The notes under the pieces are model-generated. The model made no database searches. It had not been told where the DNA came from and saw nothing but the letters and a program-made list of their open reading frames with translations. This document shows, piece by piece, positions 208 to 36,159 of a DNA stretch of 64,000 nt. Made by a program: the position numbers and the translations under genes. The DNA is from a virus (Duplodnaviria; Heunggongvirae; Uroviricota; Caudoviricetes), in the IMG/VR virus record IMGVR_UViG_3300021963_000036; one strand, written 5' to 3'. Numbering within the stretch: position 1 is the first letter of the stretch; each line of letters starts with the position of its first letter.

Positions 208-257
208 AACATTGGAACCAGTGAGGTTCCATTACATAGCAAAAGGAGTTTTTGCAC

Positions 258-1304
258 ATGCGTGACGCATTAGTATTCATCGGTAGGTTCCAACCGTTTC
301 ACAATGGACACAAAGCAGTTATCGAAACTGCGCTCAAGCAAGCAAAAGAAGTTGTGGTCGTAGTCGGCTCATGCTTTGCAGCTCGAAACATTCGAAACCC
401 ATTTACATTTGAAGAACGCAAGGCTATGATTGAAGCCTGCTTTACTGAGCCGCAGCACTTTGCTTATGAAGGTGCTCAAGGCCGAGTAAAGATTCCTCGT
501 GTTAAGGTAGTTCCTGTTTCAGATTACCCATATGACGACAACAAATGGATGAATGCTATCCAGAACGTTGTCGATGAGACTGTTCCTCATGCACAAGATG
601 TTGGCCTAATCGGACACTCGAAAGACAGTACCTCGTACTACTTGGAAATCTTTCCTCGTTGGAAAAACCATGTCGAGGTTGAAGACGTCAGGGGCATCAA
701 CGCGACTGACATTCGGAAGGTATTCTTTGAAACCCCGAATACACCGTTTATGCCGGATATGATGCCTTCTGAGGTTGTTTCTATCCTTGGAGATATTCTT
801 ACAAATAAACCATTTTTTACGCTTCGTACGGAATATGAAATGGTTAAGAAGTACAAGGATGCTTGGAAGTCTGCTCCCTTCCCTCCGACCTTTATGACTG
901 TCGATGCTGTAGTGGTTCAATCTGGCCATCTGCTTCTCGTTAAACGTGGCGACATGCCGGGTAAAGGTCTTTGGGCACTTCCTGGTGGTTTCTTGAACCA
1001 GAACGAAACCATGCTTGACGGTGCAATCCGTGAACTGAAAGAGGAAACCAAGATTAAGGTTCCAGTTCCGGTTCTGAAAGGTTCAGTCAAAGAGTCCAAG
1101 ACGTTTGACGCTCCGAATCGTTCTTCTCGCGGTCGCACTATCACTCAAGCATTCTTCATTGACCTCGGTGTTGGTGAACTGCCGAAAGTGAAAGGCTCTG
1201 ACGACGCTGAAAAGGCGTTTTGGGTTCCCTTCAATAAAGTGAAACAGGAAAAGATGTTCGAAGATCACTTCTTCATCATCGACAACTTCCTTAACATTGG
1301 TTAA
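258..1304 (+). CDS. natV: Bifunctional nicotinamide-mononucleotide adenylyltransferase / Nudix ADP-ribose pyrophosphatase (NadM-Nudix, KVP40 NatV-like)
   Basis: N-terminal GRFQPFHNGH (HxGH nucleotidyltransferase motif); C-terminal Nudix box GGF..x..RELKEETKI; GGAG RBS 9 nt upstream of ATG 258 (the ORF track uses a TTG at 252). Confidence 0.85.
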   Translation: MRDALVFIGRFQPFHNGHKAVIETALKQAKEVVVVVGSCFAARNIRNPFTFEERKAMIEACFTEPQHFAYEGAQGRVKIPRVKVVPVSDYPYDDNKWMNAIQNVVDETVPHAQDVGLIGHSKDSTSYYLEIFPRWKNHVEVEDVRGINATDIRKVFFETPNTPFMPDMMPSEVVSILGDILTNKPFFTLRTEYEMVKKYKDAWKSAPFPPTFMTVDAVVVQSGHLLLVKRGDMPGKGLWALPGGFLNQNETMLDGAIRELKEETKIKVPVPVLKGSVKESKTFDAPNRSSRGRTITQAFFIDLGVGELPKVKGSDDAEKAFWVPFNKVKQEKMFEDHFFIIDNFLNIG

Positions 1305-1322
1305 GATAAAGTAGGATATATT

Positions 1323-1865
1323 ATGGCAAAAGAAGAAAATCTATTCAAAATCGGTGACAAAGTCGTTAAGAGTGCCGGCAAAAAGGTTATGACTGTTACT
1401 TGGGTGTCTGGTAATTACCTCACCGCACAGTACGATCATAGTGGGCAGCAGCACCGTGACTATGCCTCCAACTTTAAACTATATGAGGAGACTCAAACTA
1501 TGAGCAATTCAATTTACAAACTGAACCTCGACAACGACTTTAACCCAAAGCCCATCTTTGCCCACTATCGTGGCACCGACAGCACTGGTAACTGGTTGAT
1601 GGAACGCATCGGCGATGGCGGTGGTATCATGGTCGTCGCAAAAGAGAAGTGCGAAGAGGTTCTGCCCTACACATTCAGCGTTCGCATGAACGGCCGAGAG
1701 CAACACTTCCAAGGTGAATCCGGCAAAGTAAAGAAGGGTGACATCCTTCTGTACACCGCTGGTGGTGTCGATAACTTCGCCTTTGCTGTCGTCAAGAACG
1801 TCGATACAAAGAACAAAGGCGCTAAGGTTTGGGAAGGCGTTCGCGTCTTGACCGAAGCCATCTAA
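1323..1865 (+). CDS. hypothetical protein
   Basis: 180-aa ORF with RBS, lying between the two NAD-salvage genes. Confidence 0.45.
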   Translation: MAKEENLFKIGDKVVKSAGKKVMTVTWVSGNYLTAQYDHSGQQHRDYASNFKLYEETQTMSNSIYKLNLDNDFNPKPIFAHYRGTDSTGNWLMERIGDGGGIMVVAKEKCEEVLPYTFSVRMNGREQHFQGESGKVKKGDILLYTAGGVDNFAFAVVKNVDTKNKGAKVWEGVRVLTEAI

Positions 1866-1869
1866 GACA

Positions 1870-1898
1870 TTGACATTATCGCAGAGATGTGGTAATGT
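1870..1898 (+). promoter_or_regulatory. candidate sigma70-type promoter (TTGACA-17-TAATGT)
   Basis: ttgaca at 1870-1875, taatgt at 1893-1898, upstream of nadV. Confidence 0.4.
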
Positions 1899-1953
1899 CG
1901 ACCCAAGTCCATCCAGAGAGGATGGCATAACATAACGATAGAGGAGTTCTATT

Positions 1954-3405
1954 ATGAAAAACGTACTAAACTTAATGACTGCAATCATCCGTACGGATAG
2001 CTATAAGTTCTCGCAGTGGATGCAGTACCCCGCTGATACAGCATACATCAGTTCTTACATCGAATCGCGTGGTGGTGAACCTGAGTCGGTCTTCTTTGGC
2101 CTGCAAGCGTTCATCAAAGAATATATGATGACTCCGATTACGATGAAAGACGTCGATCGCGCTGAGAAGATCGTTCTTGCTCATGGTCTTCCCTTCAACC
2201 GTGAAGGTTGGGAAATCATTGTGAACGACTACAACGGGATGCTTCCTGTCGAGATCGAGGCTGTTCCTGAAGGCACCGTTATGCCTACGCACAACGTTCA
2301 GGTCCAAGTTGTAAACACCGATCCTCGACTGTTCTGGCTGACTTCATACCTTGAGACCGCAATGCTTCGTGGTATCTGGTACCCCTCGACCGTGGCTACC
2401 AAGTCACGTAAGATGAAGAAGATCATTGCGGCCGCTTTGAAGAAAACGTCTGACGTTCCCGTGAACGATCAAATCTTCTTCAAGCTTCACGACTTTGGTG
2501 CACGTGGTGCATCTTCGACCGAAACTGCTATCCTCGGTGGTATGGCTCACCTGATTAACTTCATGGGAACCGACACCTTCGAGGCGATCCCTGCAATCAT
2601 GGAACTTTACAACACCGACGAGGTTGTTGGCTTCTCGATTCCGGCTTCTGAACACTCGACCATCACTTCATGGGGTCGTGAAAACGAGGTCAAAGCTTTC
2701 GAGAACATGATCGACAAGTTTGCCGGTCCTGGTAAGTTGTATGCCTGCGTCTCTGATAGCTTCAACATCTACGAAGCTGCTGGTGACTTGTGGGGCACGA
2801 AGCTGAAGGATAAAATCATTGCGAAAGGCGGCACCTTGGTGGTACGTCCTGACTCTGGTGATCCCGAAACTGTTCCAGTTGAAATCATCGAAATCCTCAT
2901 GGATAAGTTCGGTTTCACTGTGAACTCGAAAGGTTTCAAAGTTCTTCCTCCTTACATTCGTTTGATCCAAGGTGATGGTATCAACGAGAACTCTCTGCCT
3001 AAGATCATCGACAACATGATTGCAAAGGGTTTCTCGATCGACAACATCGCTTTCGGCATGGGTGGTGGGCTTCTGCAAGCTTGGAACCGTGACACTCTCA
3101 AGTACGCAATGAAAGCTTCGGCTCGTTGCGATACGAATGGAGTCTGGCACGACGTGTTCAAAGACCCGATCAGCGATCATGGTAAAGTGTCGAAGAAGGG
3201 TCGTCTTGGCTTGGTTCTTGATGGCGGTATCGGATCGCTTACTCTGCAAACCTTGCCTAAGGATATTGCAGACAAGCGTGGTAACGTACTTCGTAAAGTG
3301 TACCGTAATGGTGAACTTCTGATTGAAGATACGTTTGAACAAATCCGTGAACGTGCAACTTTGAAGGAGAAAGAATATGTCTTCGAAATCGTCGACCGTT
3401 ACTGA
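1954..3405 (+). CDS. nadV: Nicotinamide phosphoribosyltransferase (NAMPT/NadV)
   Basis: 483 aa; N-terminal RTDSYKFSQW..YP motif and overall NAMPT-like length and composition; GAGGAG RBS. Confidence 0.85.
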   Translation: MKNVLNLMTAIIRTDSYKFSQWMQYPADTAYISSYIESRGGEPESVFFGLQAFIKEYMMTPITMKDVDRAEKIVLAHGLPFNREGWEIIVNDYNGMLPVEIEAVPEGTVMPTHNVQVQVVNTDPRLFWLTSYLETAMLRGIWYPSTVATKSRKMKKIIAAALKKTSDVPVNDQIFFKLHDFGARGASSTETAILGGMAHLINFMGTDTFEAIPAIMELYNTDEVVGFSIPASEHSTITSWGRENEVKAFENMIDKFAGPGKLYACVSDSFNIYEAAGDLWGTKLKDKIIAKGGTLVVRPDSGDPETVPVEIIEILMDKFGFTVNSKGFKVLPPYIRLIQGDGINENSLPKIIDNMIAKGFSIDNIAFGMGGGLLQAWNRDTLKYAMKASARCDTNGVWHDVFKDPISDHGKVSKKGRLGLVLDGGIGSLTLQTLPKDIADKRGNVLRKVYRNGELLIEDTFEQIRERATLKEKEYVFEIVDRY

Positions 3406-5986: not shown

Positions 5987-6036
5987 TACATTGCCGGATA
6001 CATGTGATAAGTATAACTTAAGAAAAGGAGATCAAC

Positions 6037-6264
6037 ATGTTTCTGACGAACATCGAATACGAATTTCTTCTCGCTGGTCGAGTTACTGCAGTCCAAGGTA
6101 ATCTTGCCAAACTGACGGTTTCCGGCAAAGATCAAGATGCTCGCTTTCTGATGGAAGGCCCTTCAGGTAAGCATAGCCTGCTCGTTGCAGCCACTGACCT
6201 CAATCGTCTGAATGCCCATTGGGTTCAGTTCGCAAATCACTCTCTGAATACCGTTCGCGCTTAA
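6037..6264 (+). CDS. hypothetical protein
   Basis: 75-aa ORF with AAGGAG RBS. Confidence 0.4.
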   Translation: MFLTNIEYEFLLAGRVTAVQGNLAKLTVSGKDQDARFLMEGPSGKHSLLVAATDLNRLNAHWVQFANHSLNTVRA

Positions 6265-6274
6265 GGAGATCGAC

Positions 6275-6523
6275 ATGAAAATCAGCGAAGTCTTCAAAGT
6301 AACTACCACTCGCCCGTTGAATGCACTTAACAGTGTAGGTATCGCAGAACTTGCTCAGTTCACACCGATTACCCTTCACTCGATGCCTTTCTCTGCCGCT
6401 TGGCAGACTCTGGTAAATGAATGGAAGTTCGAATACAACCCTCGCGATGATGAATACCAAACGATGAGCGGTTTGCAGATGTTCTTCAAAGACGGTTCGT
6501 CGATCACATTGAAACGGAAATAG
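6275..6523 (+). CDS. hypothetical protein
   Basis: 82-aa ORF with AAGGAG RBS. Confidence 0.4.
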   Translation: MKISEVFKVTTTRPLNALNSVGIAELAQFTPITLHSMPFSAAWQTLVNEWKFEYNPRDDEYQTMSGLQMFFKDGSSITLKRK

Positions 6524-6524
6524 T

Positions 6525-7049
6525 ATGACAGTCCTCGAAAATCTCAAGTCTAGGCACTTCGATATGAATGTGCATACCGTCTGGATTGACGAGGACGAAG
6601 GTGTTGCAACTTATCCTCTGTGGAACCTGACCGGTCAGATGGTTGGCTATCAGCAGTATCGTCCTGCAGCCAATAAGAAGAAAGACAACCATCCTCGCGA
6701 GTCTCGATACTTCTCATGGCGCAAAGACAAAGTCGTCGGCGTTTGGGGTCTCGAGTCTTGGAACTTCTCTAACACTTTGTTTGTAACTGAAGGAACGTTC
6801 GATGCTGCTCGTCTTACTGCTCGTGGTTATTCAGCTGTTGCTACTCTTAGTAATGACGTGGATCCACCTCTCGCGCGATGGCTTTGGACGGTACGACGAA
6901 GTCGCCATGTCGTTGCTGTTTGCGATAACGATAACGCTGGGCGTAAGCTTGCTAAGTGTGGTCATACCTCTCATGTGATGGAAGATGGTAAAGACATGGG
7001 CGAAGCCTCTGATGAATATGTCACTAACTTTTTGAAGGAATACAAATGA
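6525..7049 (+). CDS. stand-alone Toprim-domain protein (DnaG-primase-like catalytic core)
   Basis: LFVTEGTFDAARL ... VAVCDNDNAGRKLA resembles the Toprim E...DxD signature; no zinc-ribbon region. Confidence 0.5.
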   Translation: MTVLENLKSRHFDMNVHTVWIDEDEGVATYPLWNLTGQMVGYQQYRPAANKKKDNHPRESRYFSWRKDKVVGVWGLESWNFSNTLFVTEGTFDAARLTARGYSAVATLSNDVDPPLARWLWTVRRSRHVVAVCDNDNAGRKLAKCGHTSHVMEDGKDMGEASDEYVTNFLKEYK

Positions 7050-8170
7050 AAACTGTACTGACTAGCGAAACTCTCTACAAACTTGACTCGAAGAGTAAGA
7101 CTCGAGTCTGGCATTGTGAAACTGGAACTGATGGAACTCGTTGGGGTCTGCGATCGATTGCTGGCCTTGAAGATGGCAAGAAAGTAACTTCTGAATGGAC
7201 CTTTGTTGAACAGAAGAACATTGGTCGTTCAAACGAAACTTCTCTCGAAGAACAAGCAACGTCTGAGATGGCTTCTGAAGTCCAGAAGAAAAAAGACCGC
7301 GGTTACTTCGCTGACTTGAAGAACATCGACACTTTCGACAAGTTTAAGCCAATGTTGGCTGAAAAGTTTGAAGACGTCACTGTGAACTTCGCTGCGGGTA
7401 ATGTCTATAGCCAACCAAAGTTGGATGGTATTCGTTGTATTGCTCGTGCTGATGGTTTGTGGACTCGATCCGGTAAAGAAATCACTGCAGTGCCTCATAT
7501 TTGGGAAGCGATTCAACCATTCTTTGAAAAGCATCCGAACATGATCCTCGACGGTGAACTATATAACCACGAACTCAAGGACGACTTCAATACTATCACT
7601 TCGATGGTTCGCAAGACAAAGCCGAAGCCTGAAGACTTGGAGAAATCTAAAGAACTCGTGCAGTACCACGTATACGACGTGATCGTCACTGACGAACCTA
7701 ATCTTCTTTTCAGCAAGCGCGAATTGCTTCGCTATGAAGCCTCAGGGAATTACGTTCGAATGGTGCCGACTATGCACGTTCCCACCCGTGCAGGACTCGA
7801 TTCTTTGTATGAAGGTTACCTCGAGCATGGTTATGAAGGGCAAATGGTTCGTATTGACAAGCCATATGAGAACAAGCGTACGAAGAACTTGCTGAAGCGT
7901 AAAGAATTCTTGACTGAAGAATTCGAAGTGATCGAGATGCTCGAAGGTCAAGGTAACTGGCAAGGTTGTGTGAAGCACTTTATTCTTCCTTTGAACGCTG
8001 AGAAGAACTTCCAAGCAGGTGTTCGTGGCGATATGGATACTCTTCGTGAGTTGCTTAAGAACGGGAAAAAGCCTGATTGGGTTACTCTCCGCTACTTCAC
8101 TCCGACTCCTGATGGTGTCCCACGTTTCCCTGTTGTGATCGACTGGGGCTTTGGAAAGCGAGAGGACTGA
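7046..8170 (+). CDS. ATP-dependent DNA ligase
   Basis: Motif I KLDGIRC (KxDGxR) with downstream nucleotidyltransferase motifs; ~370 aa, typical phage ligase size. Confidence 0.85.
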   Translation: MKTVLTSETLYKLDSKSKTRVWHCETGTDGTRWGLRSIAGLEDGKKVTSEWTFVEQKNIGRSNETSLEEQATSEMASEVQKKKDRGYFADLKNIDTFDKFKPMLAEKFEDVTVNFAAGNVYSQPKLDGIRCIARADGLWTRSGKEITAVPHIWEAIQPFFEKHPNMILDGELYNHELKDDFNTITSMVRKTKPKPEDLEKSKELVQYHVYDVIVTDEPNLLFSKRELLRYEASGNYVRMVPTMHVPTRAGLDSLYEGYLEHGYEGQMVRIDKPYENKRTKNLLKRKEFLTEEFEVIEMLEGQGNWQGCVKHFILPLNAEKNFQAGVRGDMDTLRELLKNGKKPDWVTLRYFTPTPDGVPRFPVVIDWGFGKRED

Positions 8171-8237
8171 TCATGGATGGTTTCACACTCTTTTTGATTA
8201 TTTTAACGTTTGGCATCATTTATGTTGGTTTGAAGGG

Positions 8238-8266
8238 TTGACATTTGTGGTTGGATTGCTTATATT
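8238..8266 (+). promoter_or_regulatory. sigma70-type early promoter (TTGACA-17-TATATT) followed by AATAGTAAACA
   Basis: ttgaca at 8238-8243, tatatt at 8261-8266. Confidence 0.5.
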
Positions 8267-8293
8267 CGAATAGTAAACAAAAGGAATCCAACC

Positions 8294-8458
8294 ATGAACC
8301 TCGCTACTCGTAAAATTGCTGAAATGTTGAACATCGACTTGAAAATTGCTCTTGAAGTTCAACACGTTCTCGAGTGCGAATGGTTCGACTTCAGTGAGTG
8401 TTCCAACGCAAGCCTGAAGCGTAATGCAAAACGCGTCTTGAAAGAAATGACCGCGTGA
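8294..8458 (+). CDS. hypothetical small protein (first of three short translationally coupled ORFs, 8294-8736)
   Basis: 54 codons with AAGGAA RBS; next ORFs at 8482-8613 and 8610-8736 (the latter a hydrophobic peptide). Confidence 0.3.
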   Translation: MNLATRKIAEMLNIDLKIALEVQHVLECEWFDFSECSNASLKRNAKRVLKEMTA

Positions 8459-8835
8459 AGCTTTCAGAAGAAATCGCTAACATGACTGCTGTTATGGAAA
8501 CTGACAGCAGTCAACCAACACGACAAGAAGTGTACACGATCTTGCTTCGAGCATTCGTCGAACTTCGTATGTTAGAAAATCGTATCCGTTCCTTAGAAGG
8601 AAAACTCGAATGACTGAACTCATTTTGTATTATGTATTGCCGAATGTCGTGATGTTTGGTGGACTCTATCTTCTCGCAACAGGTATTGAAAACCTGACGT
8701 GGAAGTTCATTCTCTGGTATTGTGACAACTACTGAACTTTACCTGTTGACATCACTCTGCAACAATTACCGAAGTCAACAAGAATGAATTTCATGTTTCT
8801 GACTTCTCTCATCTTCGTAAAGTCTGAGGTATATC

Positions 8836-9960
8836 ATGCACTACAAGTTTCCTGAAATTCGCACGATCTATGATGTGTTGCTTGCGATCGAAGGTCGCCC
8901 AGAGTTCATCGTTGCCGAGCGCGACTTTGGCAAAGTGATCAACTACATGGTCTCGATGCCAGACACTTTCAAGATGGAAGGTCCTGACGACGTGATGGGT
9001 GCTATTCGTCGTGAGTGTCGAGGCTTGATCTTCGACGATGAAGGCAACATCATGTCTCGCCCGTATCACAAGTTCTTCAACGTGAACGAGAAAGAAGAGA
9101 CTCAGTCGCATCTTCTCGACTTGACTCGTGCTCACTCTGTGATGGATAAGTTGGATGGTTCTATGATCCGTCCGATCTGGATGCATGACACGGTTCGTCT
9201 TGCTACGAAGATGGGTGTGACTGACATTGCGATCGAAGCTGAGAAGCTGCTGGATTATGATCAGTGGACGTGGCTTGAAGATATGATGGTCGACAGTCTG
9301 ACTCCGATCTTCGAATACGTTGCTCCGACGAACAAGATCGTTGTTGAGTATGCTGAAGAAAAGCTAATCTTGACCGGTGTTCGCGAAAACGTTAGCGGTG
9401 AATATCGTAGCTTGCGCCAGTGGAATGCACCGTTTGAAATCGTTCGCACTGACTCGAATGTTCATGACTTCGATGCTTATCTTACTTTCAAGCGCGGTGA
9501 AACGAACCGTGAAGGTGACATCATCCGCTTTGCTGATGGACATATGATCAAGATCAAGAACGACTGGTACGTGCAAATCCACAAGACCAAGGACGTCGTT
9601 CGTGTTGATCGCAACATCGTTGAACTCGTACTAAACGAGACGATCGACGATACTCGCGCCGTACTTGATCCTTCGGACTTGGTTCGAGTCGATGAAGTCG
9701 AAGCTAACTTTTGGAAAGCTTTCGAGAATGTTGTTGGTCGATTGGAAGGGCTGGAACTCTTGGCTCGCACTATCTACGGTGCCGACAAGAAACGTATCGC
9801 TTTGGAAATGGCTCCGAACTTGATTAACAAACAGGATGCCGGTTTCATGTTCAAACTGATCGACGGTCATGACGTTCGTGAACTGTTGCTGACCCATTGT
9901 AAGAAGAACATCGGTTCGACTCCGAAGTATGATGAACTGATGGAATGGATGAAAGCATGA
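8836..9960 (+). CDS. rnlA: RNA ligase 1 (T4 Rnl1/gp63-like)
   Basis: HKFFNVNE (T4 Rnl1 has EKFFNLNE) and motif I MDKLDGSM; length matches T4 Rnl1. Confidence 0.8.
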   Translation: MHYKFPEIRTIYDVLLAIEGRPEFIVAERDFGKVINYMVSMPDTFKMEGPDDVMGAIRRECRGLIFDDEGNIMSRPYHKFFNVNEKEETQSHLLDLTRAHSVMDKLDGSMIRPIWMHDTVRLATKMGVTDIAIEAEKLLDYDQWTWLEDMMVDSLTPIFEYVAPTNKIVVEYAEEKLILTGVRENVSGEYRSLRQWNAPFEIVRTDSNVHDFDAYLTFKRGETNREGDIIRFADGHMIKIKNDWYVQIHKTKDVVRVDRNIVELVLNETIDDTRAVLDPSDLVRVDEVEANFWKAFENVVGRLEGLELLARTIYGADKKRIALEMAPNLINKQDAGFMFKLIDGHDVRELLLTHCKKNIGSTPKYDELMEWMKA

Positions 9961-10280
9961 CATCGGAAACTGAACTAAACTACTACGAAGAGCTTTGCAG
10001 ACTTAAGGTCCAATACAAAGCTCTTCGTGAAGAATACTTCTTGGTGTCAGCTTCTTCGCGCTTTCATGACATTGAAGAAGGAGACTTTTGTCCGGAGTGC
10101 AATGGTTCTGGCTACAAGTTGTATGGTTCTACCGCAACTTGGAGAGGTGGCATCGGCGGACAAGCTATGACTACTTCAGTATGTGATAAATGTTGGGGTT
10201 CTGGCTCTAAGTCGGCTCCTTGGCCATCATGGAGAGAATACGAAGCTCTAAAAGAAAGGTTGACAAATGACTCCGTTTAG
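9957..10280 (+). CDS. zinc-ribbon protein
   Basis: CPECNGSGYK ... CDKCWGSGSK paired CxxC motifs. Confidence 0.45.
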   Translation: MTSETELNYYEELCRLKVQYKALREEYFLVSASSRFHDIEEGDFCPECNGSGYKLYGSTATWRGGIGGQAMTTSVCDKCWGSGSKSAPWPSWREYEALKERLTNDSV

Positions 10281-10461
10281 AGTAGATTTTGATCAAGTAA
10301 ATTACATGAAATTTCGTCCAGGAACCAAACTTGTGCTTGGACCAGAAATTGCTATAGTGATGGCTTCGTGCAATAAAATTCCGCGCGTGTTCAAGCCTAT
10401 TGTTGATTTGTCAAAAATGATGCATCACCCTGAAGTCGAAGCACTTCTGTTTGGAGTATGA
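10267..10461 (+). CDS. hypothetical protein
   Basis: 64-aa ORF overlapping the upstream stop. Confidence 0.3.
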   Translation: MTPFRVDFDQVNYMKFRPGTKLVLGPEIAIVMASCNKIPRVFKPIVDLSKMMHHPEVEALLFGV

Positions 10462-10723
10462 CATGAAAGTACGTGAAGCGTTTCCCGGATTTACTACGCT
10501 GTTCAAGCACTGCCGTCCAGCCGCTGGTGATGCGGTTGTATATGAAGTCGATGCTGGAGCACCAGCCGATCCAAACCTTGTTATGAAAGCATCTTGCTTT
10601 GATGATGAGAAACCCGTTGGTGAAACGTTCGAGTTCATTATCTCTAAGGAATGGGTTCTTGAAAACATTGTAAGTATCCTAGCTGCGTACGAACCAGTTG
10701 ACAATGTAGCAAGTTCGGTATAA
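10451..10723 (+). CDS. hypothetical protein
   Basis: 90-aa ORF. Confidence 0.35.
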   Translation: MEYDMKVREAFPGFTTLFKHCRPAAGDAVVYEVDAGAPADPNLVMKASCFDDEKPVGETFEFIISKEWVLENIVSILAAYEPVDNVASSV

Positions 10724-10748
10724 TATCCGATTGAAATAGGAGATAAGA

Positions 10749-11870
10749 ATGTTCGAACGTAAACTAGCGTCTATTCGGCGCATCGCTGACATCCAACCGA
10801 TCGAAGGCGCTGATCAAATTGTAGTCGCCACCATCGATGGCTGGAAAGTTGTTGTTAAAAAAGATGAGTTTCGAGTTGGTGATCTTGCAGCATATCTTGA
10901 GATCGACTCGTGGGTTCCTCATGAACTCGCCCCATTCCTCTCGAAAGGTCAAGATCCTCGCGAATACAACGGTGTGAAAGGTGAACGCCTGCGCACTATC
11001 AAACTTCGCGGACAGGTTAGTCAAGGGCTGCTGCTTCCACTTCGGCCAGTGTTTGCAGAGTGGACTGATGAGAATTTTCAAAAGAATATTCTTGAAGATG
11101 AGGAACGTGTCGGCGACGATCTTACTGAAGCACTTGGCATCCAGAAATGGGAAGCTGTGCTGCCTGCACAACTTCAAGGTCAGGCCAAAGGCACGTTCCC
11201 AACGTCACTGATTCCAAAGACTGATCAAGAGCGTATTCAAAACTGCTTTGGTGAAATCCAAAAGCGGGCAAAGCGGTTCGCTACTGAGAAGGTCTGGAAT
11301 GCTGAGACTCAGACTCTGGAAGAGCATCCAGTTGTTGTTCCTACTGACTTCAAAGAACAGACCTACGAAGTCACCATGAAACTGGATGGTTCGAGTTGTA
11401 CTATCTTCCGCTGGGAAGACGAACTTCGTGTTTGCAGTCGGAACCTTGAGCTCAAGATCAACGATGAAAACAAAGACAACACCTTCGTTGCCATGGCTCT
11501 CAAGATCGGCGACCGTGTTCCTAATGGGTTTGCTTTTCAAGGTGAAGTGATGGGACCTGGCATTCAGGCCAACCGTGAAGGATTTATTGAACATAAGTTC
11601 TTCGTGTTTGATGTGTTCCTCATTAAAGAACATAAGTATGCCGGTCCAGCCTACCGGCGAGCGTTTTGCCAAGAATACGGATTCGAACACGTTCCAGTTC
11701 TTGAGCATAATCTCAAGGCACCCGTGAGCGTCGCAGAAGGTCTTGCTATGGCAGAAGGTCCGAGCATCAACCACAAGATCCGTGAAGGTCTTGTTTGGAA
11801 GTGCAACGAAGACCCGAGCTTCAGCTTCAAGACGATCAGCAATCAGTTCCTGCTGAAAGGTGGGGACTGA
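10749..11870 (+). CDS. second ATP-dependent RNA ligase, Rnl5/DraRnl-like, with an N-terminal OB/tRNA-binding-like domain
   Basis: Motif I MKLDGSSCTIF at residue ~211; the N-terminal 100 aa (IRRIADIQPIEGADQIVVATIDGWKVVVKKDEFRVGDLAAY) follows the Trbp111/CsaA OB-fold pattern. Confidence 0.55.
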   Translation: MFERKLASIRRIADIQPIEGADQIVVATIDGWKVVVKKDEFRVGDLAAYLEIDSWVPHELAPFLSKGQDPREYNGVKGERLRTIKLRGQVSQGLLLPLRPVFAEWTDENFQKNILEDEERVGDDLTEALGIQKWEAVLPAQLQGQAKGTFPTSLIPKTDQERIQNCFGEIQKRAKRFATEKVWNAETQTLEEHPVVVPTDFKEQTYEVTMKLDGSSCTIFRWEDELRVCSRNLELKINDENKDNTFVAMALKIGDRVPNGFAFQGEVMGPGIQANREGFIEHKFFVFDVFLIKEHKYAGPAYRRAFCQEYGFEHVPVLEHNLKAPVSVAEGLAMAEGPSINHKIREGLVWKCNEDPSFSFKTISNQFLLKGGD

Positions 11871-12175
11871 TGTGTAACTGCAAAGGATGGGACGTTGCGT
11901 TCTTCCAAGATGATGAGATCACGGTAGTACAGCACTTTTGTCGAGTGTATGGAGACTGTGGTCACGTCGATAACACCCTTGAAGAGGCTGCAGATCAAGT
12001 CGCCTCTGAATACGACAAGAACTATGATTGGTACTGTGATGCGAGAAATCGTGACATAGTAGAAGTCACAGACGAGAAACTCGATTGGTTGCTTGCTCAA
12101 GCGAAGTCTTGGAAAGATCGTACACATACGAGCTATTTGTACTACGCAATTGGCGAAAATATTGGCCTTTTGTGA
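11870..12175 (+). CDS. hypothetical Cys-rich protein
   Basis: ATG overlaps the upstream stop (TGATG); MCNCKGWD... frame. Confidence 0.35.
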   Translation: MCNCKGWDVAFFQDDEITVVQHFCRVYGDCGHVDNTLEEAADQVASEYDKNYDWYCDARNRDIVEVTDEKLDWLLAQAKSWKDRTHTSYLYYAIGENIGLL

Positions 12176-12237
12176 AAAAGGCTATTTACATCCTTTGTGA
12201 ATAGGGTTATACTATATTCATAGCCAAGGAGATAAAC

Positions 12238-12771
12238 ATGACTGTCAATGCTTCCGATCGTAACGGCCTCGAGCTTACCCCCGCTGCAGACACCTTGAAC
12301 GCCTACCGCTTGACTGCGGTAAACACCAAGACCAAGAAGTTCACAGCTTACGCAGCCGGTACTCGTAAATCGAACCAAGAGTTCAATATGTTCACGATCG
12401 GCTTATATGACGATCCTCGCGACGCTGCTTATGTTGCTCAAGAGTTCGAAAAGAAAGTCAGCAAATCTCAAGTTCGTGAGATGGTTACCGACAGTACTTT
12501 CGCTGAGTTTGCTAAAGACTTCCGGTCGAACATCGAAATCCCTGAGTGGGTCTACCCTGCTGAAGGTATGACGATCGACGAGATGCTGAACACCACCTAC
12601 AAACGCAACTATGTTCTCGATGCCCGTGAAGCTCTGGTTGAAGCGATCAACGTCTTCAAAAAGCCGGTTCCTTCTCTGAAAGATGCTGCAGCGATGATCA
12701 AGAAAGTTGAAGCTGCGGTGAAAGAAGGTATGACCCTCCGTGCAGCTGCGGCGAAAGTGATCGGCGCCTAA
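12238..12771 (+). CDS. hypothetical protein
   Basis: 177-aa ORF with AAGGAG RBS after a TTTACA-17-TATACT promoter (12185-12213). Confidence 0.45.
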   Translation: MTVNASDRNGLELTPAADTLNAYRLTAVNTKTKKFTAYAAGTRKSNQEFNMFTIGLYDDPRDAAYVAQEFEKKVSKSQVREMVTDSTFAEFAKDFRSNIEIPEWVYPAEGMTIDEMLNTTYKRNYVLDAREALVEAINVFKKPVPSLKDAAAMIKKVEAAVKEGMTLRAAAAKVIGA

Positions 12772-12808
12772 GCAAAACATAAATAGTAAGCAATATCATG
12801 GAGGAACC

Positions 12809-13567
12809 ATGCGCTTACTATTCATTCTTGCCCTCATCCCAACGTTTGCTTATGCAAATCCAATAGACGACAAATGCCCAGAGCACACCGCTCTGGGTGC
12901 TCCTATATCTAAGCTAGTTGAAGATACACAGTATGTATGTCATACCAACTATGCAATTCACTATCGCTTTGATACTAAGACTGCTGAATACGTAGTCGAG
13001 CATCTAGACGATGCTGACATCAATGGTCCAGCAAAGCGAAAAGACGACTTCAGACCAGACGATCAAATTCCAGCTGAGCATTCAGCAACGCTTGAAGATT
13101 ACTCTGGCGAACCATACGATCGTGGGCATCTAGTCCCAGGCGCAGACAATAAAGCAGATCAAGAGATCATGAGTGAAAGCTTCTTTCTTTCAAACATGGT
13201 TCCTCAAGTGCCAAACAACAACCGCGGTATCTGGAGAATGCTTGAGCTCAAAGTACGTAACTGGGCTCTTGAAAAGAGAGACCTCTATGTGGTCTCTGGT
13301 ACGATCTATGAAGAAGGATACAAGACCATCGGTGATGGTAAAGTTGGTGTCCCTACGTACCTCTGGAAGGTTGTGTATGATAAGACTACCAACACAACCG
13401 TGGCATACCTCATGCCGAACGCTGAGCTTCCAGTGAATGATCTACCAAAGTACGTAACCACAGTAGACCAAGTTGAAGAACTTACTGGTCTGAATATCTT
13501 CCCACAGCTTGAAGAATCTGCAGAAGGCGTTGCAAATCCTGAAGTATGGACCAACATTTCTGATTGA
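12809..13567 (+). CDS. secreted DNA/RNA non-specific endonuclease (Serratia NucA family)
   Basis: N-terminal signal peptide MRLLFILALIPTFAYA; active-site DRGHLVP and Mg-site FFLSNMVPQ motifs. Confidence 0.8.
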   Translation: MRLLFILALIPTFAYANPIDDKCPEHTALGAPISKLVEDTQYVCHTNYAIHYRFDTKTAEYVVEHLDDADINGPAKRKDDFRPDDQIPAEHSATLEDYSGEPYDRGHLVPGADNKADQEIMSESFFLSNMVPQVPNNNRGIWRMLELKVRNWALEKRDLYVVSGTIYEEGYKTIGDGKVGVPTYLWKVVYDKTTNTTVAYLMPNAELPVNDLPKYVTTVDQVEELTGLNIFPQLEESAEGVANPEVWTNISD

Positions 13568-13616
13568 CATTTTTCCTTCTGTGGTGTAGAGTTGAACCAT
13601 AGAAGGAGATTACACA

Positions 13617-14072
13617 ATGAAAAAAGGCGAACTCCTGAGCAAGATGCTCCATATCGCTACTAATGCCCACCACGGCCAGTTTGATCGTGGTGGCAATCCC
13701 TACATCCTGCATCCGATCAAAGTGATGCACTACATCAAATCCGAAGACGAAGAGCTGCAGTGTATCGCACTTGGCCATGACGTAATCGAAGATACAGATG
13801 TGACCTTCCTCGATCTTGTCGATGCTGGAATGACCACTCGAGTTATTGAGGGTATCCGAGCTCTGACAAAGATGCCGGGGCAAACCTACGATGAATACAA
13901 AGAAGGCGTCTTCAAGAATGTTGATGCCATGAAAGTCAAGTTGGCGGATCTTCGCCATAATACAGACGTGCGCCGGCTGAAAGGTGTCTCTGAAAAAGAC
14001 ATCGCCCGCATGGAAAAGTACCATCGTTTCTACCTTGAAATCAACTTCCGCTTGAAGGAACTCGAAAAATGA
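13617..14072 (+). CDS. HD-domain (p)ppGpp hydrolase (small alarmone hydrolase, Mesh1/SpoT-like)
   Basis: HGQFDRGGNPYILHP ... LGHDVIEDT motifs; 151 aa. Confidence 0.75.
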   Translation: MKKGELLSKMLHIATNAHHGQFDRGGNPYILHPIKVMHYIKSEDEELQCIALGHDVIEDTDVTFLDLVDAGMTTRVIEGIRALTKMPGQTYDEYKEGVFKNVDAMKVKLADLRHNTDVRRLKGVSEKDIARMEKYHRFYLEINFRLKELEK

Positions 14073-14485
14073 AACCGTTTAAGATCAACCGTAGCTCTTG
14101 GCACTACAAACTGAACCAGCACTTCTTTAACATGGAAGGAAGTAGCGAATATTGGATGCAACGGGACTGGGAACCGAAGCACAACACCTTCTGTTCATAT
14201 TGGCGCGCAACGATGTTTCGCTTCATTTTTGCGTCTGCACTCATGGCCTTTTTTGGTACGCTTTTCACTGCTCTTGGAGTAGCAACTTATCAAGACCCGT
14301 TTGCGGCACTCATCACGTTCCTTTCGATCGCCACTGTTTTTGGTTCGGTTATCGGTTCTTTCGCGATCTTTCAATACTTCAAAAATCGTAGCGAAAAGAA
14401 CAGCAATGAACCTAAGTCGCTGTTCGTTCAGAAATACCGTGCATACAAATCGAAAGTATGCCCAATGGTGGAATTCGAAAAATGA
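14069..14485 (+). CDS. membrane protein
   Basis: two or three predicted TM helices (FIFASALMAFFGTLFTALGV..., ALITFLSIATVFGSVIGSFAIF). Confidence 0.45.
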   Translation: MKPFKINRSSWHYKLNQHFFNMEGSSEYWMQRDWEPKHNTFCSYWRATMFRFIFASALMAFFGTLFTALGVATYQDPFAALITFLSIATVFGSVIGSFAIFQYFKNRSEKNSNEPKSLFVQKYRAYKSKVCPMVEFEK

Positions 14486-15126
14486 AAACTCGTCTGATCG
14501 GAGACATTCACGGTGAATGGGAACTCTATCATCAAACCGCAACTGATGCGATCAATTCCGGATGCGAACGCACGATCCAAGTTGGTGACTTCGGTGTTGG
14601 ATTCTCTGGTCCATATTGGCACGACCGCGCTGACGAATTTCACTGGGACCGAACGCATCGCTTCATCCGTGGCAATCATGATGATCCATCACGTTGCAAG
14701 AAAATGTCTGGCTGGATTCAAGATGGCCTTATCGAAAATGACGTGATGTTCATCGGTGGTGCATGGTCAATCGACCATATGCTACGCACTGAAGGAACTT
14801 CTTGGTGGGCTGATGAAGAACTATCGATGGAAGAACTCTATCGCATGATCGAGATCTATGAGCAGGTCAAGCCTCGAGTTATGATCACTCATGACTGTCC
14901 GCAAGAAGTAAGCACAGCGATGTTCATTCAAACCGGTCTTGCTTTGTTCAAAGGGAATGCTAAGACTATTCCTACTCGAACTGCAATGGCATTCAGCACG
15001 ATGCTTGATATTCACCAGCCCGATGAGTGGTATTTCGGACATTGGCATAACACAATGCAATACAAACATGGGCGTACGATGTTCCAGTGTCTTGGTATTC
15101 ATGATTATGTGGACGTAGAACTATGA
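14482..15126 (+). CDS. Ser/Thr-phosphatase-like metallophosphoesterase (lambda-PPase fold)
   Basis: GDIHGEW, VGDFG and RGNHDD motifs; start taken at MKTRLIGDIHG. Confidence 0.7.
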   Translation: MKTRLIGDIHGEWELYHQTATDAINSGCERTIQVGDFGVGFSGPYWHDRADEFHWDRTHRFIRGNHDDPSRCKKMSGWIQDGLIENDVMFIGGAWSIDHMLRTEGTSWWADEELSMEELYRMIEIYEQVKPRVMITHDCPQEVSTAMFIQTGLALFKGNAKTIPTRTAMAFSTMLDIHQPDEWYFGHWHNTMQYKHGRTMFQCLGIHDYVDVEL

Positions 15127-15332
15127 CCGAATATAATCCATTCACTGAGTGTGAAGCAATGAGTTCTGAACATGGTACCGGATGGTCGGTTGTTTCAAAA
15201 TATTGGAGCATCCCATGCGCAAATGAAGGTACAGCCAAACGTATTGCCGAGATTATTAAATTTGCTTATCACCGCGGTGTATCTGATAATCAAAACATGA
15301 TAAAAAAGGTAATGGGAATTCCGTATGAATGA
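15123..15332 (+). CDS. hypothetical protein
   Basis: 69-aa ORF coupled to its neighbours. Confidence 0.35.
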   Translation: MTEYNPFTECEAMSSEHGTGWSVVSKYWSIPCANEGTAKRIAEIIKFAYHRGVSDNQNMIKKVMGIPYE

Positions 15333-15651
15333 ATATAGACCAGATAATTGGGTAGTGATCAAAATCAAAGGCGATGACCCTCACTACAAAGTTCTTGCTG
15401 GCTGGTCTGGTGGATATACTACAGGTGATTCGTGGCGTATGAACAGCGGCATCACTATGGTTGACGAGATCGAGAATGCGTTTATGTTCAAGGGGTCTAC
15501 TGGTTCAGTGTACACATGTCGTAAGGAAAGTTATTGCTTGCGCATGAACAATGCACACGTCTGGGCTCGGCTTCAAGAGCTTCATGGTGACAAAGTCGAA
15601 CTCATGCCAGAAGATACCGACTGGATGAACATTGATTGGATCATTAAATGA
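15325..15651 (+). CDS. hypothetical protein
   Basis: 108-aa ORF. Confidence 0.4.
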   Translation: MNEYRPDNWVVIKIKGDDPHYKVLAGWSGGYTTGDSWRMNSGITMVDEIENAFMFKGSTGSVYTCRKESYCLRMNNAHVWARLQELHGDKVELMPEDTDWMNIDWIIK

Positions 15652-16121
15652 TTGACCTGTCCACTTTTGATAAAGGTGGCTTTGGAAAAGTCGACCACTC
15701 TCTTGTGAATAACTGGACTTGGGATTCACTTGGCGAGATGGTTAAACATATCGCACAAAACGATATCCGCCGATACTCCCCACTTGGAGACGGCGGATTC
15801 GCTTGTTGGGGTTGTGAACCTTGGTTCAAAGAGGTGTTGGACTTTCTTCAGCCTCTTAAGCCGGAGTACCAACCTCGTGCCGCAGCATATTGTAGCACAA
15901 GCGATACTTCTAAGTCCTTTGATCTTCATCGTGATCATGAGCAGTATATCTGGGTTTGGCAAATCATTGGGTCGACTCCTTGGCAGGTAGAGGATACTGA
16001 GTTTGTACTCGAAACAAATGAGTTGCTCTATGTTAGTCCTAACATGCTACACTGCGCCAAACCAAACTCACCGCGTGCAAGCATCACATTTTCTCTCGAA
16101 AAAGAGCATTTTTATGGTTGA
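15648..16121 (+). CDS. hypothetical protein (possible cupin-like fold)
   Basis: 157-aa ORF; His-rich LHRDHEQYIWVW segment. Confidence 0.35.
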   Translation: MIDLSTFDKGGFGKVDHSLVNNWTWDSLGEMVKHIAQNDIRRYSPLGDGGFACWGCEPWFKEVLDFLQPLKPEYQPRAAAYCSTSDTSKSFDLHRDHEQYIWVWQIIGSTPWQVEDTEFVLETNELLYVSPNMLHCAKPNSPRASITFSLEKEHFYG

Positions 16122-17725: not shown

Positions 17726-17926
17726 ATGAAAAAGATCGTCATTCTCTCTGTTCTTCTTCTTTCTGCTTGTGCTAGTGCTGGCATTCCGATCGAACAAGAT
17801 CGTGAAATGCAGTTGCAGTACATGCAAGATGTTTCTGAGCGTAAAGTGTTTCGACCTGAAGTGTATGCTGAACCAGAGTTCGAAGCAGACTGTGAAGAAT
17901 ATCAAATGGAAGAATGCTTCAATTAA
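17726..17926 (+). CDS. small lipoprotein
   Basis: MKKIVILSVLLLSAC lipobox-type signal peptide. Confidence 0.45.
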   Translation: MKKIVILSVLLLSACASAGIPIEQDREMQLQYMQDVSERKVFRPEVYAEPEFEADCEEYQMEECFN

Positions 17927-17937
17927 GGAATAAAAAT

Positions 17938-19182
17938 ATGCGAATGTTTCTGGTCGGTGGCTTTGTCCGCGACCACCAAATGGGTATGATGCCACAAGAC
18001 CGCGACTATGTCGTTACTGGCACAACTGAAGAAGAATTCCTGAAAGCTTCACCCTTTGGGCATACGTTCTCAAAGGTTGGTGCAGCATTTCCAGTTTACA
18101 TCGATGATACCGGCAATGAGTGGGCTCTGGCTCGTCGCGAAAAGAAAGTCGGTAAAGGTTATCATGGCTTCGAATCAACCTCTGGTCCTGAAGTGACGAT
18201 CGAAGAAGATCTGTCTCGTCGTGATCTGACCGTGAATGCTATGGCTATCGAGATCTTCGAAGATATGAAGACTCGCATCGTCAACACCATCGATCCTTTC
18301 AACGGTCAAGAAGATCTGAAGAACAAAGTTCTGCGACACACCTCTGATGCTTTTGCTGAAGATCCTGTTCGTGTTCTGCGACTGGCTCGATTCCGTGCAC
18401 GCTTTGGCCCTGAATGGACAGTTGCTCCAGAGACTGTTGCTCTGGTTTCTTCGATGGCGAAGAAGGGTGTTCTGAATGAGCTGACGGCTGAACGTGTTTG
18501 GAAAGAACTGAGTCGAGCTCTGATGGAAGATCATGCACGGCTGTTCTTCGATACTCTGCTGGAATGTGATGCGCTGCATGTTCTGTTTCCAGAAGTCTAC
18601 AAACTGAAGACTGCTCTGGAAGCGCGGCGTTGGCACCCAGAAGGTGATGCTTACGAGCACACTATGCTGGTTCTGACTCAAGCTGTCGAGAGCAACTTCG
18701 ATCTGGAGACACGACTGGCTTGTCTGGTTCACGACTTCGGCAAGGGTCTGACTCCTCGTGATCAACTGCCCAAGCACTACGGGCACGAGGTTTCGGGTGT
18801 TAAGGTTGCTAAGGACTTCTGTGATCGTCTGACTGTTCCGTCGAAGATGCGGGATCGAGTGATGAAGACCACTCGTTTCCATATGCATATGCATAAGCTG
18901 GATACCCTGAACCCAAAGACTTGGGTAAAGATGTTCATGGAAATGGATGCGTTTCGTGATCCGGAAGTCGTCCTGCTGCTGTGGGCTGTTGGTGTCTGCG
19001 ATGAAAACGGTCGACTGGGTTCTGAGGACTCCGATACTTCTCACCTGATGAAGGTTCGACAAGTCTTCGATCGTGTTCGTATGGTAAAGTTTGCCGATGT
19101 CTTTCCGAATGGTGAAAAGAACCCTATGAAGATCAAGGACGGTATCTTCAAAGCGCGTGTTCAGGCGGTTAAGTCTGCCTGA
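17938..19182 (+). CDS. cca: tRNA nucleotidyltransferase (CCA-adding enzyme) with C-terminal HD domain
   Basis: GGFVRD and RRDLTVNAMA polymerase-beta-type head motifs; VHDFGKG HD motif; start at MRMFLVGG with AAGGAA RBS. Confidence 0.8.
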   Translation: MRMFLVGGFVRDHQMGMMPQDRDYVVTGTTEEEFLKASPFGHTFSKVGAAFPVYIDDTGNEWALARREKKVGKGYHGFESTSGPEVTIEEDLSRRDLTVNAMAIEIFEDMKTRIVNTIDPFNGQEDLKNKVLRHTSDAFAEDPVRVLRLARFRARFGPEWTVAPETVALVSSMAKKGVLNELTAERVWKELSRALMEDHARLFFDTLLECDALHVLFPEVYKLKTALEARRWHPEGDAYEHTMLVLTQAVESNFDLETRLACLVHDFGKGLTPRDQLPKHYGHEVSGVKVAKDFCDRLTVPSKMRDRVMKTTRFHMHMHKLDTLNPKTWVKMFMEMDAFRDPEVVLLLWAVGVCDENGRLGSEDSDTSHLMKVRQVFDRVRMVKFADVFPNGEKNPMKIKDGIFKARVQAVKSA

Positions 19183-19203: not shown

Positions 19204-19641
19204 ATGTCTGTAATTGAAAAACTGAAAGCTGAATCGCTTGCTCTTCGCAAGACGAAAAATCCTGTTGCTGCTTCGATCGTATTTGCTTTGAGCGAAATCG
19301 AGAAGTTTGGTAAGAACAATGGCAACCGTGCTACAACTGAAGACGAAGCCATCAAGGTTATCCAAAAGCTGATTGCAACAATCGACGAAAACTTGAAGGT
19401 TACCACCGATGATGGTCGTAAGGTTGCTTTCAACTTCGAGAAGAATATTCTAATGGGTGTTCTGCCCCAGATGGCATCTGACGATGAAATCTTGGATTTA
19501 ATTAATTCTATCATGGCAGGTAAAACTGCTGAAAACATGCCAAAGAAAAGTGAATTCATGCAAGCTGCGCGGTTTACCTTTGGTGCAAAGGTTGACATGA
19601 AACGTGTTAGCCAAATCCTTCTTGACACGTACGGAGTATGA
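19204..19641 (+). CDS. GatB/YqeY-domain protein
   Basis: 145 aa; YqeY-like helical pattern (…DEILDLINSIMAGK…MKRVSQIL). Confidence 0.5.
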   Translation: MSVIEKLKAESLALRKTKNPVAASIVFALSEIEKFGKNNGNRATTEDEAIKVIQKLIATIDENLKVTTDDGRKVAFNFEKNILMGVLPQMASDDEILDLINSIMAGKTAENMPKKSEFMQAARFTFGAKVDMKRVSQILLDTYGV

Positions 19642-34984: not shown

Positions 34985-35050
34985 GGTTGACAGCATCAAC
35001 CTTATGTGATAAGTATTGGTTACCGAAGTAAACAAACAGAGGTACTTACT

Positions 35051-35946: not shown

Positions 35947-36111
35947 GTAGAACATGAGTGAAGTCAAAACAGAAGAAGAAAAAGACGAGGGCTACACTCA
36001 GCGTGAATGGGATCGTACCGTAGGTATCGGAAAGGTTCCAGAAGAATATGCTAAACGCATCAAAACATATGAAGAAAAACAACGTAGGTATGATCGAGGC
36101 TAAACTTTTTG

Positions 36112-36141: not shown

Positions 36142-36159
36142 AGACTTGTAGTGATGATA

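Follow-up and report, generated by a model that had tools for sequence, protein, structure and literature searches.

Why does a phage that encodes an ATP-dependent DNA ligase and an Rnl1-type RNA ligase carry a third gene with a ligase active-site motif, and to which family does the product of this gene belong? The question is raised by the open reading frame at 10749-11870 of the window, by which we mean the whole 64,000-nucleotide stretch of viral DNA that was analyzed. An earlier note, made from the sequence alone, had described this frame as a second RNA ligase, with a tRNA-binding-like OB domain in front of the nucleotidyltransferase (NTase) core. Based on domain order, family models, residue conservation, and a predicted structure, we conclude that the gene very probably encodes a catalytically intact ATP-dependent RNA ligase of the Rnl5 family in a T4-like aquatic myovirus.

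Gene identification and expression signals

The frame described in the earlier note coincides exactly with an ORF of 373 amino acids on the plus strand. The N-terminal peptide quoted there, IRRIADIQPIEGADQIVVATIDGWKVVVKKDEFRVGDLAAYLEIDSWVP, corresponds to residues 9-57 of the protein, and the MKLDGSS motif, which had been placed about 210 residues into the protein, occupies residues 210-216, with K211 as the lysine of motif I. The gene and the signals in front of it are the following:

10698..10726, plus strand: sigma-70-like promoter match (TTGACA, 17 nt, TAATAT) just 5' of the Rnl5 gene, from a consensus scan
10738..10742, plus strand: Shine-Dalgarno sequence AGGAG with a 6-nt spacer to the ATG, read from the sequence
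10749..11870, plus strand: complete Rnl5-family ATP-dependent RNA ligase gene, 373 aa, ATG-to-stop ORF (stop codon included)

The Rnl5 gene has a good ribosome-binding site. The promoter match upstream of it includes a perfect TATAAT at 10719-10724 and, judging by its sequence, may be a working promoter. Altogether, 13 promoter-consensus matches were found in the region, a total that is not above that in shuffled sequences (9.9 +/- 3.0). All five matches with at least 10 of 12 consensus positions are on the plus strand, and at least four of these five are located just 5' of a listed ORF start. Early expression of the Rnl5 gene seems probable. Two minus-strand ORFs that overlap the gene (10764..11177 and 11205..11774) are presumably shadow ORFs of the coding strand.

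Genomic neighborhood and type of phage

The window comes from the genome of a T4-like myovirus. The genes that define the surroundings of the Rnl5 gene and the type of phage are listed below:

252-3405: NAD salvage genes
6525-7049: Toprim protein
7046..8170, plus strand: ATP-dependent DNA ligase, 374 aa, with a C-terminal OB domain behind the NTase domain, motif I PKLDGIR with K125 (PF01068)
8836..9960, plus strand: Rnl1-family RNA ligase, 374 aa, motif I MDKLDGSM with K105 (PF09511)
23151-24005: T4-type RNase H
25615-26367: PhoH
38138-39118: PstS
40227-40832: gp59
40860-41810: gp32

Three ligases with a KxDG motif (DNA ligase, Rnl1, and Rnl5) are therefore encoded within 5 kb. The DNA ligase was recognized by PF01068 (E 1e-16), PF14743 (E 9.9e-06), and PHROG 114 (E 7.1e-65). 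The Rnl1-type gene that the earlier note had mentioned at 8836 was borne out by matches of its product to PF09511 RNA_lig_T4_1 (E 1.4e-23) and PHROG 562 (E 9.5e-67), as well as to the T4 Rnl1 chain 2c5u (E 1.7e-27, residues 59-358). When all six-frame ORFs were searched with the family HMM, 10749..11870 alone was scored, and no second Rnl5- or Rnl2-like gene was found. The genes 3' of Rnl5 encode a non-specific endonuclease, an HD phosphohydrolase, a metallophosphoesterase, a CCA-adding enzyme (17914-19182), and YqeY.

A megablast search with positions 6000-16000 of the window found nothing close at the DNA level in 50,697 phage records; the phage is thus not catalogued, and we infer its T4-like identity from proteins only. 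Its gp32 has only about 50% identity to gp32 of Stenotrophomonas, cyanobacterial, and Methylophilales (Melnitz) myophages. The order of DNA ligase, Rnl1, Rnl5, and endonuclease, with the CCA-adding enzyme later on, is repeated in a related 195-kb metagenomic contig. In another relative the Rnl5 gene stands alone, away from any ligase, and the ligase order is not kept. The end-healing enzyme Pnkp was not found among about 45 ORFs searched with Pfam and PHROGs (a search that covered small ORFs and the 42-64 kb part incompletely), nor were tRNA genes found in the 64-kb window, so that the context for a repair pathway is incomplete here. A phage tmRNA is located about 24 kb further downstream of the stretch with Rnl1, Rnl5, the CCA-adding enzyme, and YqeY; at Rfam gathering thresholds, it showed no adjacent glutamine riboswitch of the kind present in phage Melnitz.

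Domain architecture and family assignment

The protein was divided into the following parts, given with their coding positions:

10764..11042, plus strand: N-terminal OB-fold core, residues 6-98, with strand 1 adjacent to R4 and with D53 (PF21189)
11037..11117, plus strand: variable embellishment of the N domain, residues 97-123, with short helices 98-101 and 108-116 (alignment, model)
11118..11261, plus strand: conserved stretch from the OB core to the insertion, residues 124-171, with K133 and R162 (residue mapping)
11262..11345, plus strand: 28-aa insertion, residues 172-199, KRAKRFATEKVWNAETQTLEEHPVVVPT, a predicted beta-hairpin (alignment)
11346..11867, plus strand: NTase (adenylyltransferase) domain, residues 200-373 (PF09414)
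11379..11390, plus strand: motif I, K211-L-D-G214, with K211 as the predicted AMP-accepting lysine (aligned to 170-KLDG of NgrRnl)

Pfam searches recognized the 'PHA02142 OB-fold domain' PF21189 at residues 6-98 (E 1.3e-30) and the RNA_ligase domain PF09414 at residues 205-361 (E 4.5e-26). The protein scored 176.3 bits with the NCBIfam model TIGR02306 RNA_lig_DRB0094, an equivalog model built around DraRnl of Deinococcus radiodurans, for which the curated cut-off is 151.15, and it matched PHROG 968 'RNA ligase' with an E-value of 3.8e-90. In a phmmer search against all PDB sequences, strong matches were limited to the crystal structures of NgrRnl, the RNA ligase of Naegleria gruberi (5cot and its mutants), with an E-value of 3.4e-63 overall and per-domain values of 2.6e-34 and 8.9e-26. 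Pairwise alignment with NgrRnl gave 44.7% identity over 320 aligned positions. The E-values for PF21189, PF09414, and NgrRnl place this homology far beyond chance.

The Rnl5 family is defined by its domain order (PMC7261155, PMC4408790). The phage protein has the signature order of this family, an N-terminal OB module followed by the NTase domain without a C-terminal appendage, and its chain terminates 12 residues past the motif V lysine K361. The earlier note had called this order the reverse of that in DNA ligases and characteristic of the Rnl5/DraRnl/NgrRnl type, and the Pfam layout, the TIGR02306 score, and the homology to NgrRnl all agree with it. These data support the identification of the protein as a DraRnl/NgrRnl-type (Rnl5) RNA ligase, a name that can be used with confidence. 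NgrRnl, the prototype of the family, comes from a eukaryotic source, whereas the present enzyme is from a phage. DraRnl (DRB0094; TIGR02306) shares the N-terminal OB-like module and the NTase domain (PMC1807946). In contrast, T4 Rnl2 (PDB 1s68/2hvq) lacks an N-terminal OB module and carries a helical domain at its C terminus; the Rnl2-family layout of T4 Rnl2 and the kinetoplastid RELs, in which the NTase domain is followed by a family-specific C-terminal domain, was not found in the phage protein. Because of this opposite arrangement, we regard the phage protein as a functional analog of T4 Rnl2 and not as a member of its family.

Conservation of catalytic and ATP-contacting residues

The pairwise alignment established the following equivalences between the phage protein and NgrRnl (phage residue first): R4 and R4, D53 and D53, K133 and K121, R162 and R149, K211 and K170, D213 and D172, R231 and R190, E266 and E227, E346 and E312, and K361 and K326. 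The catalytic set of the NTase domain is intact, including K211 of motif I, the glutamates of motifs III and IV, and K361 of motif V. The residues of the N domain and linker that serve the gamma-phosphate and the second metal (R4, D53, K133, and R162) are also retained. In an alignment of 85 diverse family members, R4, D53, R162, K211, G214, E266, E346, and K361 are invariant, and K133 and R231 are each conserved in at least 90% of the sequences.

The roles of these positions are known from NgrRnl. K170 acts as the nucleophile, the catalytic metal is held by D172, E227, and E312, K326 touches the alpha and gamma phosphates, and R149 touches the gamma phosphate (PMC7261155, PMC4408790). The OB module contributes R4, D53, and K121, which make contacts to the gamma phosphate and to the second metal (PMC7261155), and R190 is mentioned solely as a side chain that shifts in the R149A mutant structure (PMC7261155, PMC4408790). 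Experiments established that K170, E227, E312, and K326 are essential (PMC7261155, PMC4408790), and substitutions of K170 were inert (PMC4408790). For DraRnl, PMC1807946 reports H167 and G168, as well as K26, Q31, and R79 of the N domain, as essential. The numbering in this paper suggests that DraRnl has a histidine at the position of D213, where motif I of the phage protein reads KLDG. Since all mapped catalytic residues are present and conserved, the enzyme looks fully functional at the level of its sequence.

Predicted structure and the clade-specific hairpin

The AlphaFold2 model obtained with the diverse 85-sequence alignment had a pLDDT of 93.7 and a pTM of 0.88 and contained both domains, while the model from a shallow alignment (33 sequences of 77-85% identity) was poor (pLDDT 60, pTM 0.39) and was discarded. 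The earlier note had proposed structure prediction as a check of the N-terminal domain, and this domain was modeled as an OB fold with the NTase domain behind it. The model shares the three-dimensional fold of the NgrRnl crystal structure, and the closest folds after NgrRnl are RNA ligases, namely Rnl2 (16.9), REL1 (15.6), and Rnl3 (14.1). The lowest pLDDT values (about 73-76) fall in the variable part of the N domain (residues 97-123), which is 11 aa longer than in NgrRnl and ranges from 8 to 57 aa across the 85 family members.

Compared with NgrRnl, the phage protein differs in three places: a 28-aa predicted hairpin, the loop of the N domain that is longer by 11 aa, and a 6-aa deletion after motif Ia, a segment that is missing throughout its clade. 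The 28-aa insertion (residues 172-199) sits between the helix after R162 and the strand of motif I. It is predicted to form a beta-hairpin with strands 179-184 and 189-194 (pLDDT 87-92 in the AlphaFold2 model). The insertion is near-invariant inside the clade of the phage protein and is also found in P0121, but it is missing in NgrRnl and in the homologs of Synechococcus phage S-CREM1 and Sinorhizobium phage phiM7. Roughly one in four of the aligned family representatives also has an insertion at this junction, but these insertions are unrelated in length and sequence. The pattern suggests a hot spot at which insertions are tolerated, and not a new domain. The 28-aa beta-hairpin is the sole distinctive feature of the phage ligase. 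The hairpin before motif I or the missing 6-aa segment after motif Ia could alter the choice of substrate.

Distribution of homologs

In a collection of 5.8 billion sequences, at least 8,000 proteins matched at E <=1e-5. All 120 of the matches listed contain the same two Pfam domains, and many of them are labeled 'RNA ligase (TIGR02306 family)'. Among representatives of 50%-identity clusters, 2,002 matched at E <=1e-30. More than 100 metagenomic clusters have 75-86% identity to the phage ligase, which indicates that the gene is under selection, and two metagenome assemblies contain a protein of identical sequence.

Homologs are encoded in 338 phage records, mostly of Pseudomonas and Aeromonas phages; in 334 of these the homolog spans 80% or more of the query, and many carry the annotation 'RNA ligase'. 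Bacteriophages had already been named among the hosts of Rnl5 enzymes (PMC7261155, PMC4408790). The phage homologs in PHROG 968 include SCREM1_113 of S-CREM1, gp227 of phiM7, and proteins of Pseudomonas phage pf16 and of Aeromonas T4-like phages. The best tblastn identity to a catalogued phage was 46.5% (SCREM1_113). Both Rnl1 and Rnl5 were matched in Sinorhizobium phages phiM7, phiM12, phiM19, and phiN3 and in Synechococcus phage BUCT-ZZ01, and given this precedent in the phiM12 group and BUCT-ZZ01 the pairing of the two ligases is not unique. In phiM7, the two 'RNA ligase' genes are separated by 10 kb, and their region also encodes an NMN adenylyltransferase, an NAPRTase, a GatB/YqeY-like protein, and a metallophosphoesterase. 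Overall, the protein is a moderately divergent, ordinary member of the well-characterized Rnl5 family, and its phage context has published precedent.

The N-terminal OB domain

The earlier note had compared the N-terminal domain with the tRNA-binding OB domains of Trbp111, CsaA, and Arc1p. This comparison holds at the level of the fold, since the OB topology is common to the tRNA_bind family and the ligase N domain, but not as a sequence kinship: PF01588 tRNA_bind gave an E-value of 0.097 and 13.2 bits against a cut-off of 27, and for residues 81-100 only. Membership of the N domain in PF01588 was rejected for this score, which is far under the gathering cut-off. More generally, the OB domains of this family (Trbp111, CsaA, EMAPII, Arc1p-C, MetRS-C, and PheRS-B2) have no significant sequence match to the Rnl5 N domain. 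The resemblance itself is not new, because Raymond and Shuman had pointed out in 2007 a likeness of the DraRnl N domain to the B2 OB domain of PheRS beta (PMC1807946). In NgrRnl, the N domain serves in binding of the ATP gamma-phosphate and in lysine adenylylation, and not in tRNA binding (PMC7261155, PMC4408790). When it was deleted, adenylylation and overall sealing were lost and step 3 was kept (PMC4408790).

Predicted reaction and physiological role

By homology to NgrRnl and DraRnl, K211 would attack the alpha-phosphate of ATP in step 1 to form ligase-(lysyl-N)-AMP. D213, E266, and E346 would hold the catalytic metal via waters, and K361 would contact the alpha and gamma phosphates. The OB module (R4, D53, and K133), together with R162, would grip the gamma-phosphate and the second metal and so orient the pyrophosphate for in-line departure. 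AMP would then move to the 5'-PO4 at the nick (step 2), and attack of the RNA 3'-OH on the adenylylated 5' end would seal the nick (step 3). The expected substrate is a nicked duplex with RNA on the 3'-OH strand and either RNA or DNA on the 5'-PO4 side. To seal a nicked duplex, NgrRnl and DraRnl require RNA on the 3'-OH strand, and the 5'-PO4 strand may be RNA or DNA; T4 Rnl2 falls into the same class of specificity (PMC4408790). The earlier note had proposed sealing of 3'-OH/5'-PO4 nicks in duplex RNA; the homologs uphold the nick sealing with an RNA 3'-OH strand, but not the restriction to an all-RNA duplex. No biochemistry on phage Rnl5 enzymes was found in the literature, and the activity, substrate preference, and biological role proposed here for the phage ligase are those predicted from its relatives.

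Phage T4 pairs Rnl1 with the nick-sealing Rnl2. By analogy, Rnl5 plausibly fills the slot of Rnl2 in the present phage, which would then have an Rnl1 for ends in single-stranded loops (for example, in a tRNA cut in its anticodon loop) and, beside it, a ligase that seals nicks under the direction of a template. It is reasonable, given the T4 pair, that the two RNA ligases have different substrates, as the earlier note had suggested. According to PMC4408790, no physiological substrate has been established for any Rnl5 enzyme, and several other readings of the locus were weighed. The suggestion that the protein is a DNA ligase, or a degenerate and inactive relic of a ligase, is scarcely credible. 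The order NTase followed by a C-terminal OB domain and the PF01068 match of ATP-dependent DNA ligases are both lacking in the Rnl5-type protein, the window has a separate gene for a bona fide DNA ligase, RNA ligases come next after NgrRnl among the closest folds, the catalytic residues are all intact and invariant, and identities of 75-86% are kept across many metagenomic relatives; together these facts effectively refute it already. Considerably more probable, although still doubtful, is the same chemistry in a DNA maintenance role, in which the enzyme would work alongside the DNA ligase and seal nicks between a 3'-OH RNA patch and 5'-PO4 DNA during phage replication or repair. On a DNA template, NgrRnl and DraRnl are able to ligate the 3'-OH end of an RNA to a 5'-PO4 end of DNA (PMC4408790), and loss of DraRnl sensitizes D. 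radiodurans to ionizing radiation (PMC5397189). The distance of 2.6 kb to the ATP-dependent DNA ligase gene, the nearby Toprim protein, and the DNA ligase, Rnl1, Rnl5 order kept in the related 195-kb contig are consistent with such a role. However, the neighbors also include RNA-directed functions (Rnl1, the CCA-adding enzyme, and YqeY), the Rnl5 gene of another relative lies away from any ligase, and the phiM7 homolog is found among tRNA- and NAD-related genes.

Two further readings connect the enzyme with the RNAs of translation, and we consider each of them improbable. In one, the N-terminal OB domain would be a working tRNA-binding module of the Trbp111/CsaA type that directs the protein to tRNA or tRNA-like RNAs, and the phage would have in it a second ligase for tRNA repair, one that closes breaks in base-paired stems. 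Against this stand the PF01588 match of 13 bits for a cut-off of 27 and the N domain of NgrRnl, which binds the gamma-phosphate of ATP and the metal and is required for adenylylation but not for step 3 (PMC7261155, PMC4408790). In addition, the gamma-phosphate and metal residues of NgrRnl are all conserved in the phage protein, no report of tRNA binding by an Rnl5 enzyme was found in the literature, and neither tRNA genes nor Pnkp were found within the window. In the other reading, the hairpin and the tRNA-binding-type OB domain would suit the phage Rnl5 to structured RNAs of translation, within a module that maintains the translation apparatus by resealing nicks in stems. Such a module may comprise Rnl1, Rnl5, the CCA-adding enzyme, and YqeY, which lie within about 11 kb, as well as the tmRNA; Rnl5 may reseal tRNA, tmRNA, or rRNA stems cut by host defense ribonucleases, while Rnl1 may take the loop breaks. 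If this were true, it would provide the first physiological substrate for any Rnl5 enzyme.

Implications

Beyond the correct annotation of the gene, the importance of an Rnl5 ligase at this locus is slight, as both the family and its occurrence in phages are already well known. The question of the in vivo target belongs to the Rnl5 family as a whole, and this sequence alone makes it no more tractable. A phage with a conserved order of DNA ligase, Rnl1, and Rnl5 could nevertheless be a tractable system for the search for an Rnl5 substrate, if its host were found. The conserved 28-aa hairpin, which adjoins the active-site strand, defines an abundant environmental subclade of the family and may influence substrate selection. 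Finally, a T4-like lineage that has Rnl1 and Rnl5 where T4 has Rnl1 and Rnl2 fits the idea that such phages want both a ligase for loop ends and a template-directed sealer of nicks.

Gene content and organization of the ligase region

Three different KxDG polynucleotide ligases are encoded within 5 kb, with nothing but small ORFs between their genes, and their order is retained in a related 195-kb metagenomic contig. One of the intervening ORFs, between the two RNA ligase genes, encodes a small cysteine-rich protein:

7046-8170, + strand, ATP-dependent DNA ligase
8836-9960, + strand, Rnl1, a homolog of T4 RNA ligase 1
9945-10280, + strand, cysteine-rich protein of 111 aa
10749-11870, + strand, Rnl5, an ATP-dependent RNA ligase of the DraRnl/NgrRnl type

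The cysteine-rich protein gave weak, sub-threshold matches (E about 2e-3) to the DnaJ CXXCXGXG and Anti-TRAP zinc-finger motifs, as well as a weak match to PHROG 20685, a family of unknown function.

The five best sigma-70-like promoter matches associated with this block agree with the consensus at 10 or 11 of 12 positions, and each has a 17-nt spacer:

8238-8266, + strand
10260-10288, + strand
10698-10726, + strand
12185-12213, + strand
13564-13592, + strand

At least four of these five top matches lie immediately upstream of a listed ORF start. Their location on the + strand and their proximity to ORF starts are consistent with early transcription of the block by the host polymerase, a reading of sequence matches whose overall number is not higher than in shuffled controls.

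Genes downstream of Rnl5 include a nuclease and two genes placed next to each other:

12809-13567, + strand, DNA/RNA non-specific endonuclease (PF01223, E 3.4e-50)
17914-19182, + strand, HD-domain protein of the CCA-adding enzyme or poly(A) polymerase family (PolyA_pol, E 1.4e-17; PolyA_pol_RNAbd; HD)
19204-19641, + strand, YqeY/GatB-like protein

The endonuclease gene is kept a short way downstream of Rnl5 in relatives, and the CCA-adding/YqeY pair is likewise retained downstream of Rnl5 in related contigs. The N-terminus of the endonuclease, MRLLFILALIPTFAYANP, looks like a secretion signal, and the nuclease may be exported. No tRNA genes were found in the 64-kb window.

A pair of NAD salvage genes was also identified, and Sinorhizobium phage phiM7 has the same pair close to its Rnl5 gene:

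252-1304, + strand, NMN adenylyltransferase-Nudix fusion
1954-3405, + strand, nicotinamide phosphoribosyltransferase

Accessory genes and the phage-encoded tmRNA

Two further genes have predicted roles in anti-defence and phosphate binding:

26829-27323, + strand, Acb1-like anti-CBASS phosphodiesterase (PF23474, E 2.9e-11)
38138-39118, + strand, PstS-like phosphate-binding protein (PBP_like_2, E 2.5e-47)

The Acb1-like protein also weakly matches the 2'-5' RNA ligase (2H phosphoesterase) superfamily. PstS-like proteins are auxiliary metabolic genes typical of aquatic phages, and the presence of this gene fits the metagenomic origin of the identical contigs.

The phage also encodes a two-piece tmRNA, flanked by an ATPase gene and a von Willebrand A gene:

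31281-33407, 708-aa PHROG 459 'peptidase', upstream of both flanking genes
33488-34624, + strand, MoxR-like AAA_5 ATPase
35006-35677, cell-wall hydrolase, reported among the genes upstream of the flanking pair
36108-36479, + strand, permuted tmRNA of alphaproteobacterial type
36514-37377, + strand, von Willebrand A protein

ARAGORN called a permuted tmRNA with the tag peptide ANENSAPVAYALAA, and Rfam matched the locus to alpha_tmRNA (102.7 bits; gathering score 50) and to tmRNA_permuted (94 bits). Permuted tmRNAs are known from myophages of marine and aquatic habitats, Melnitz among them (PMC9004378). A search of Rfam at gathering thresholds found no glutamine riboswitch adjoining the tmRNA. 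The type of this tmRNA is a hint that the host, or the source of the gene, is alphaproteobacterial.
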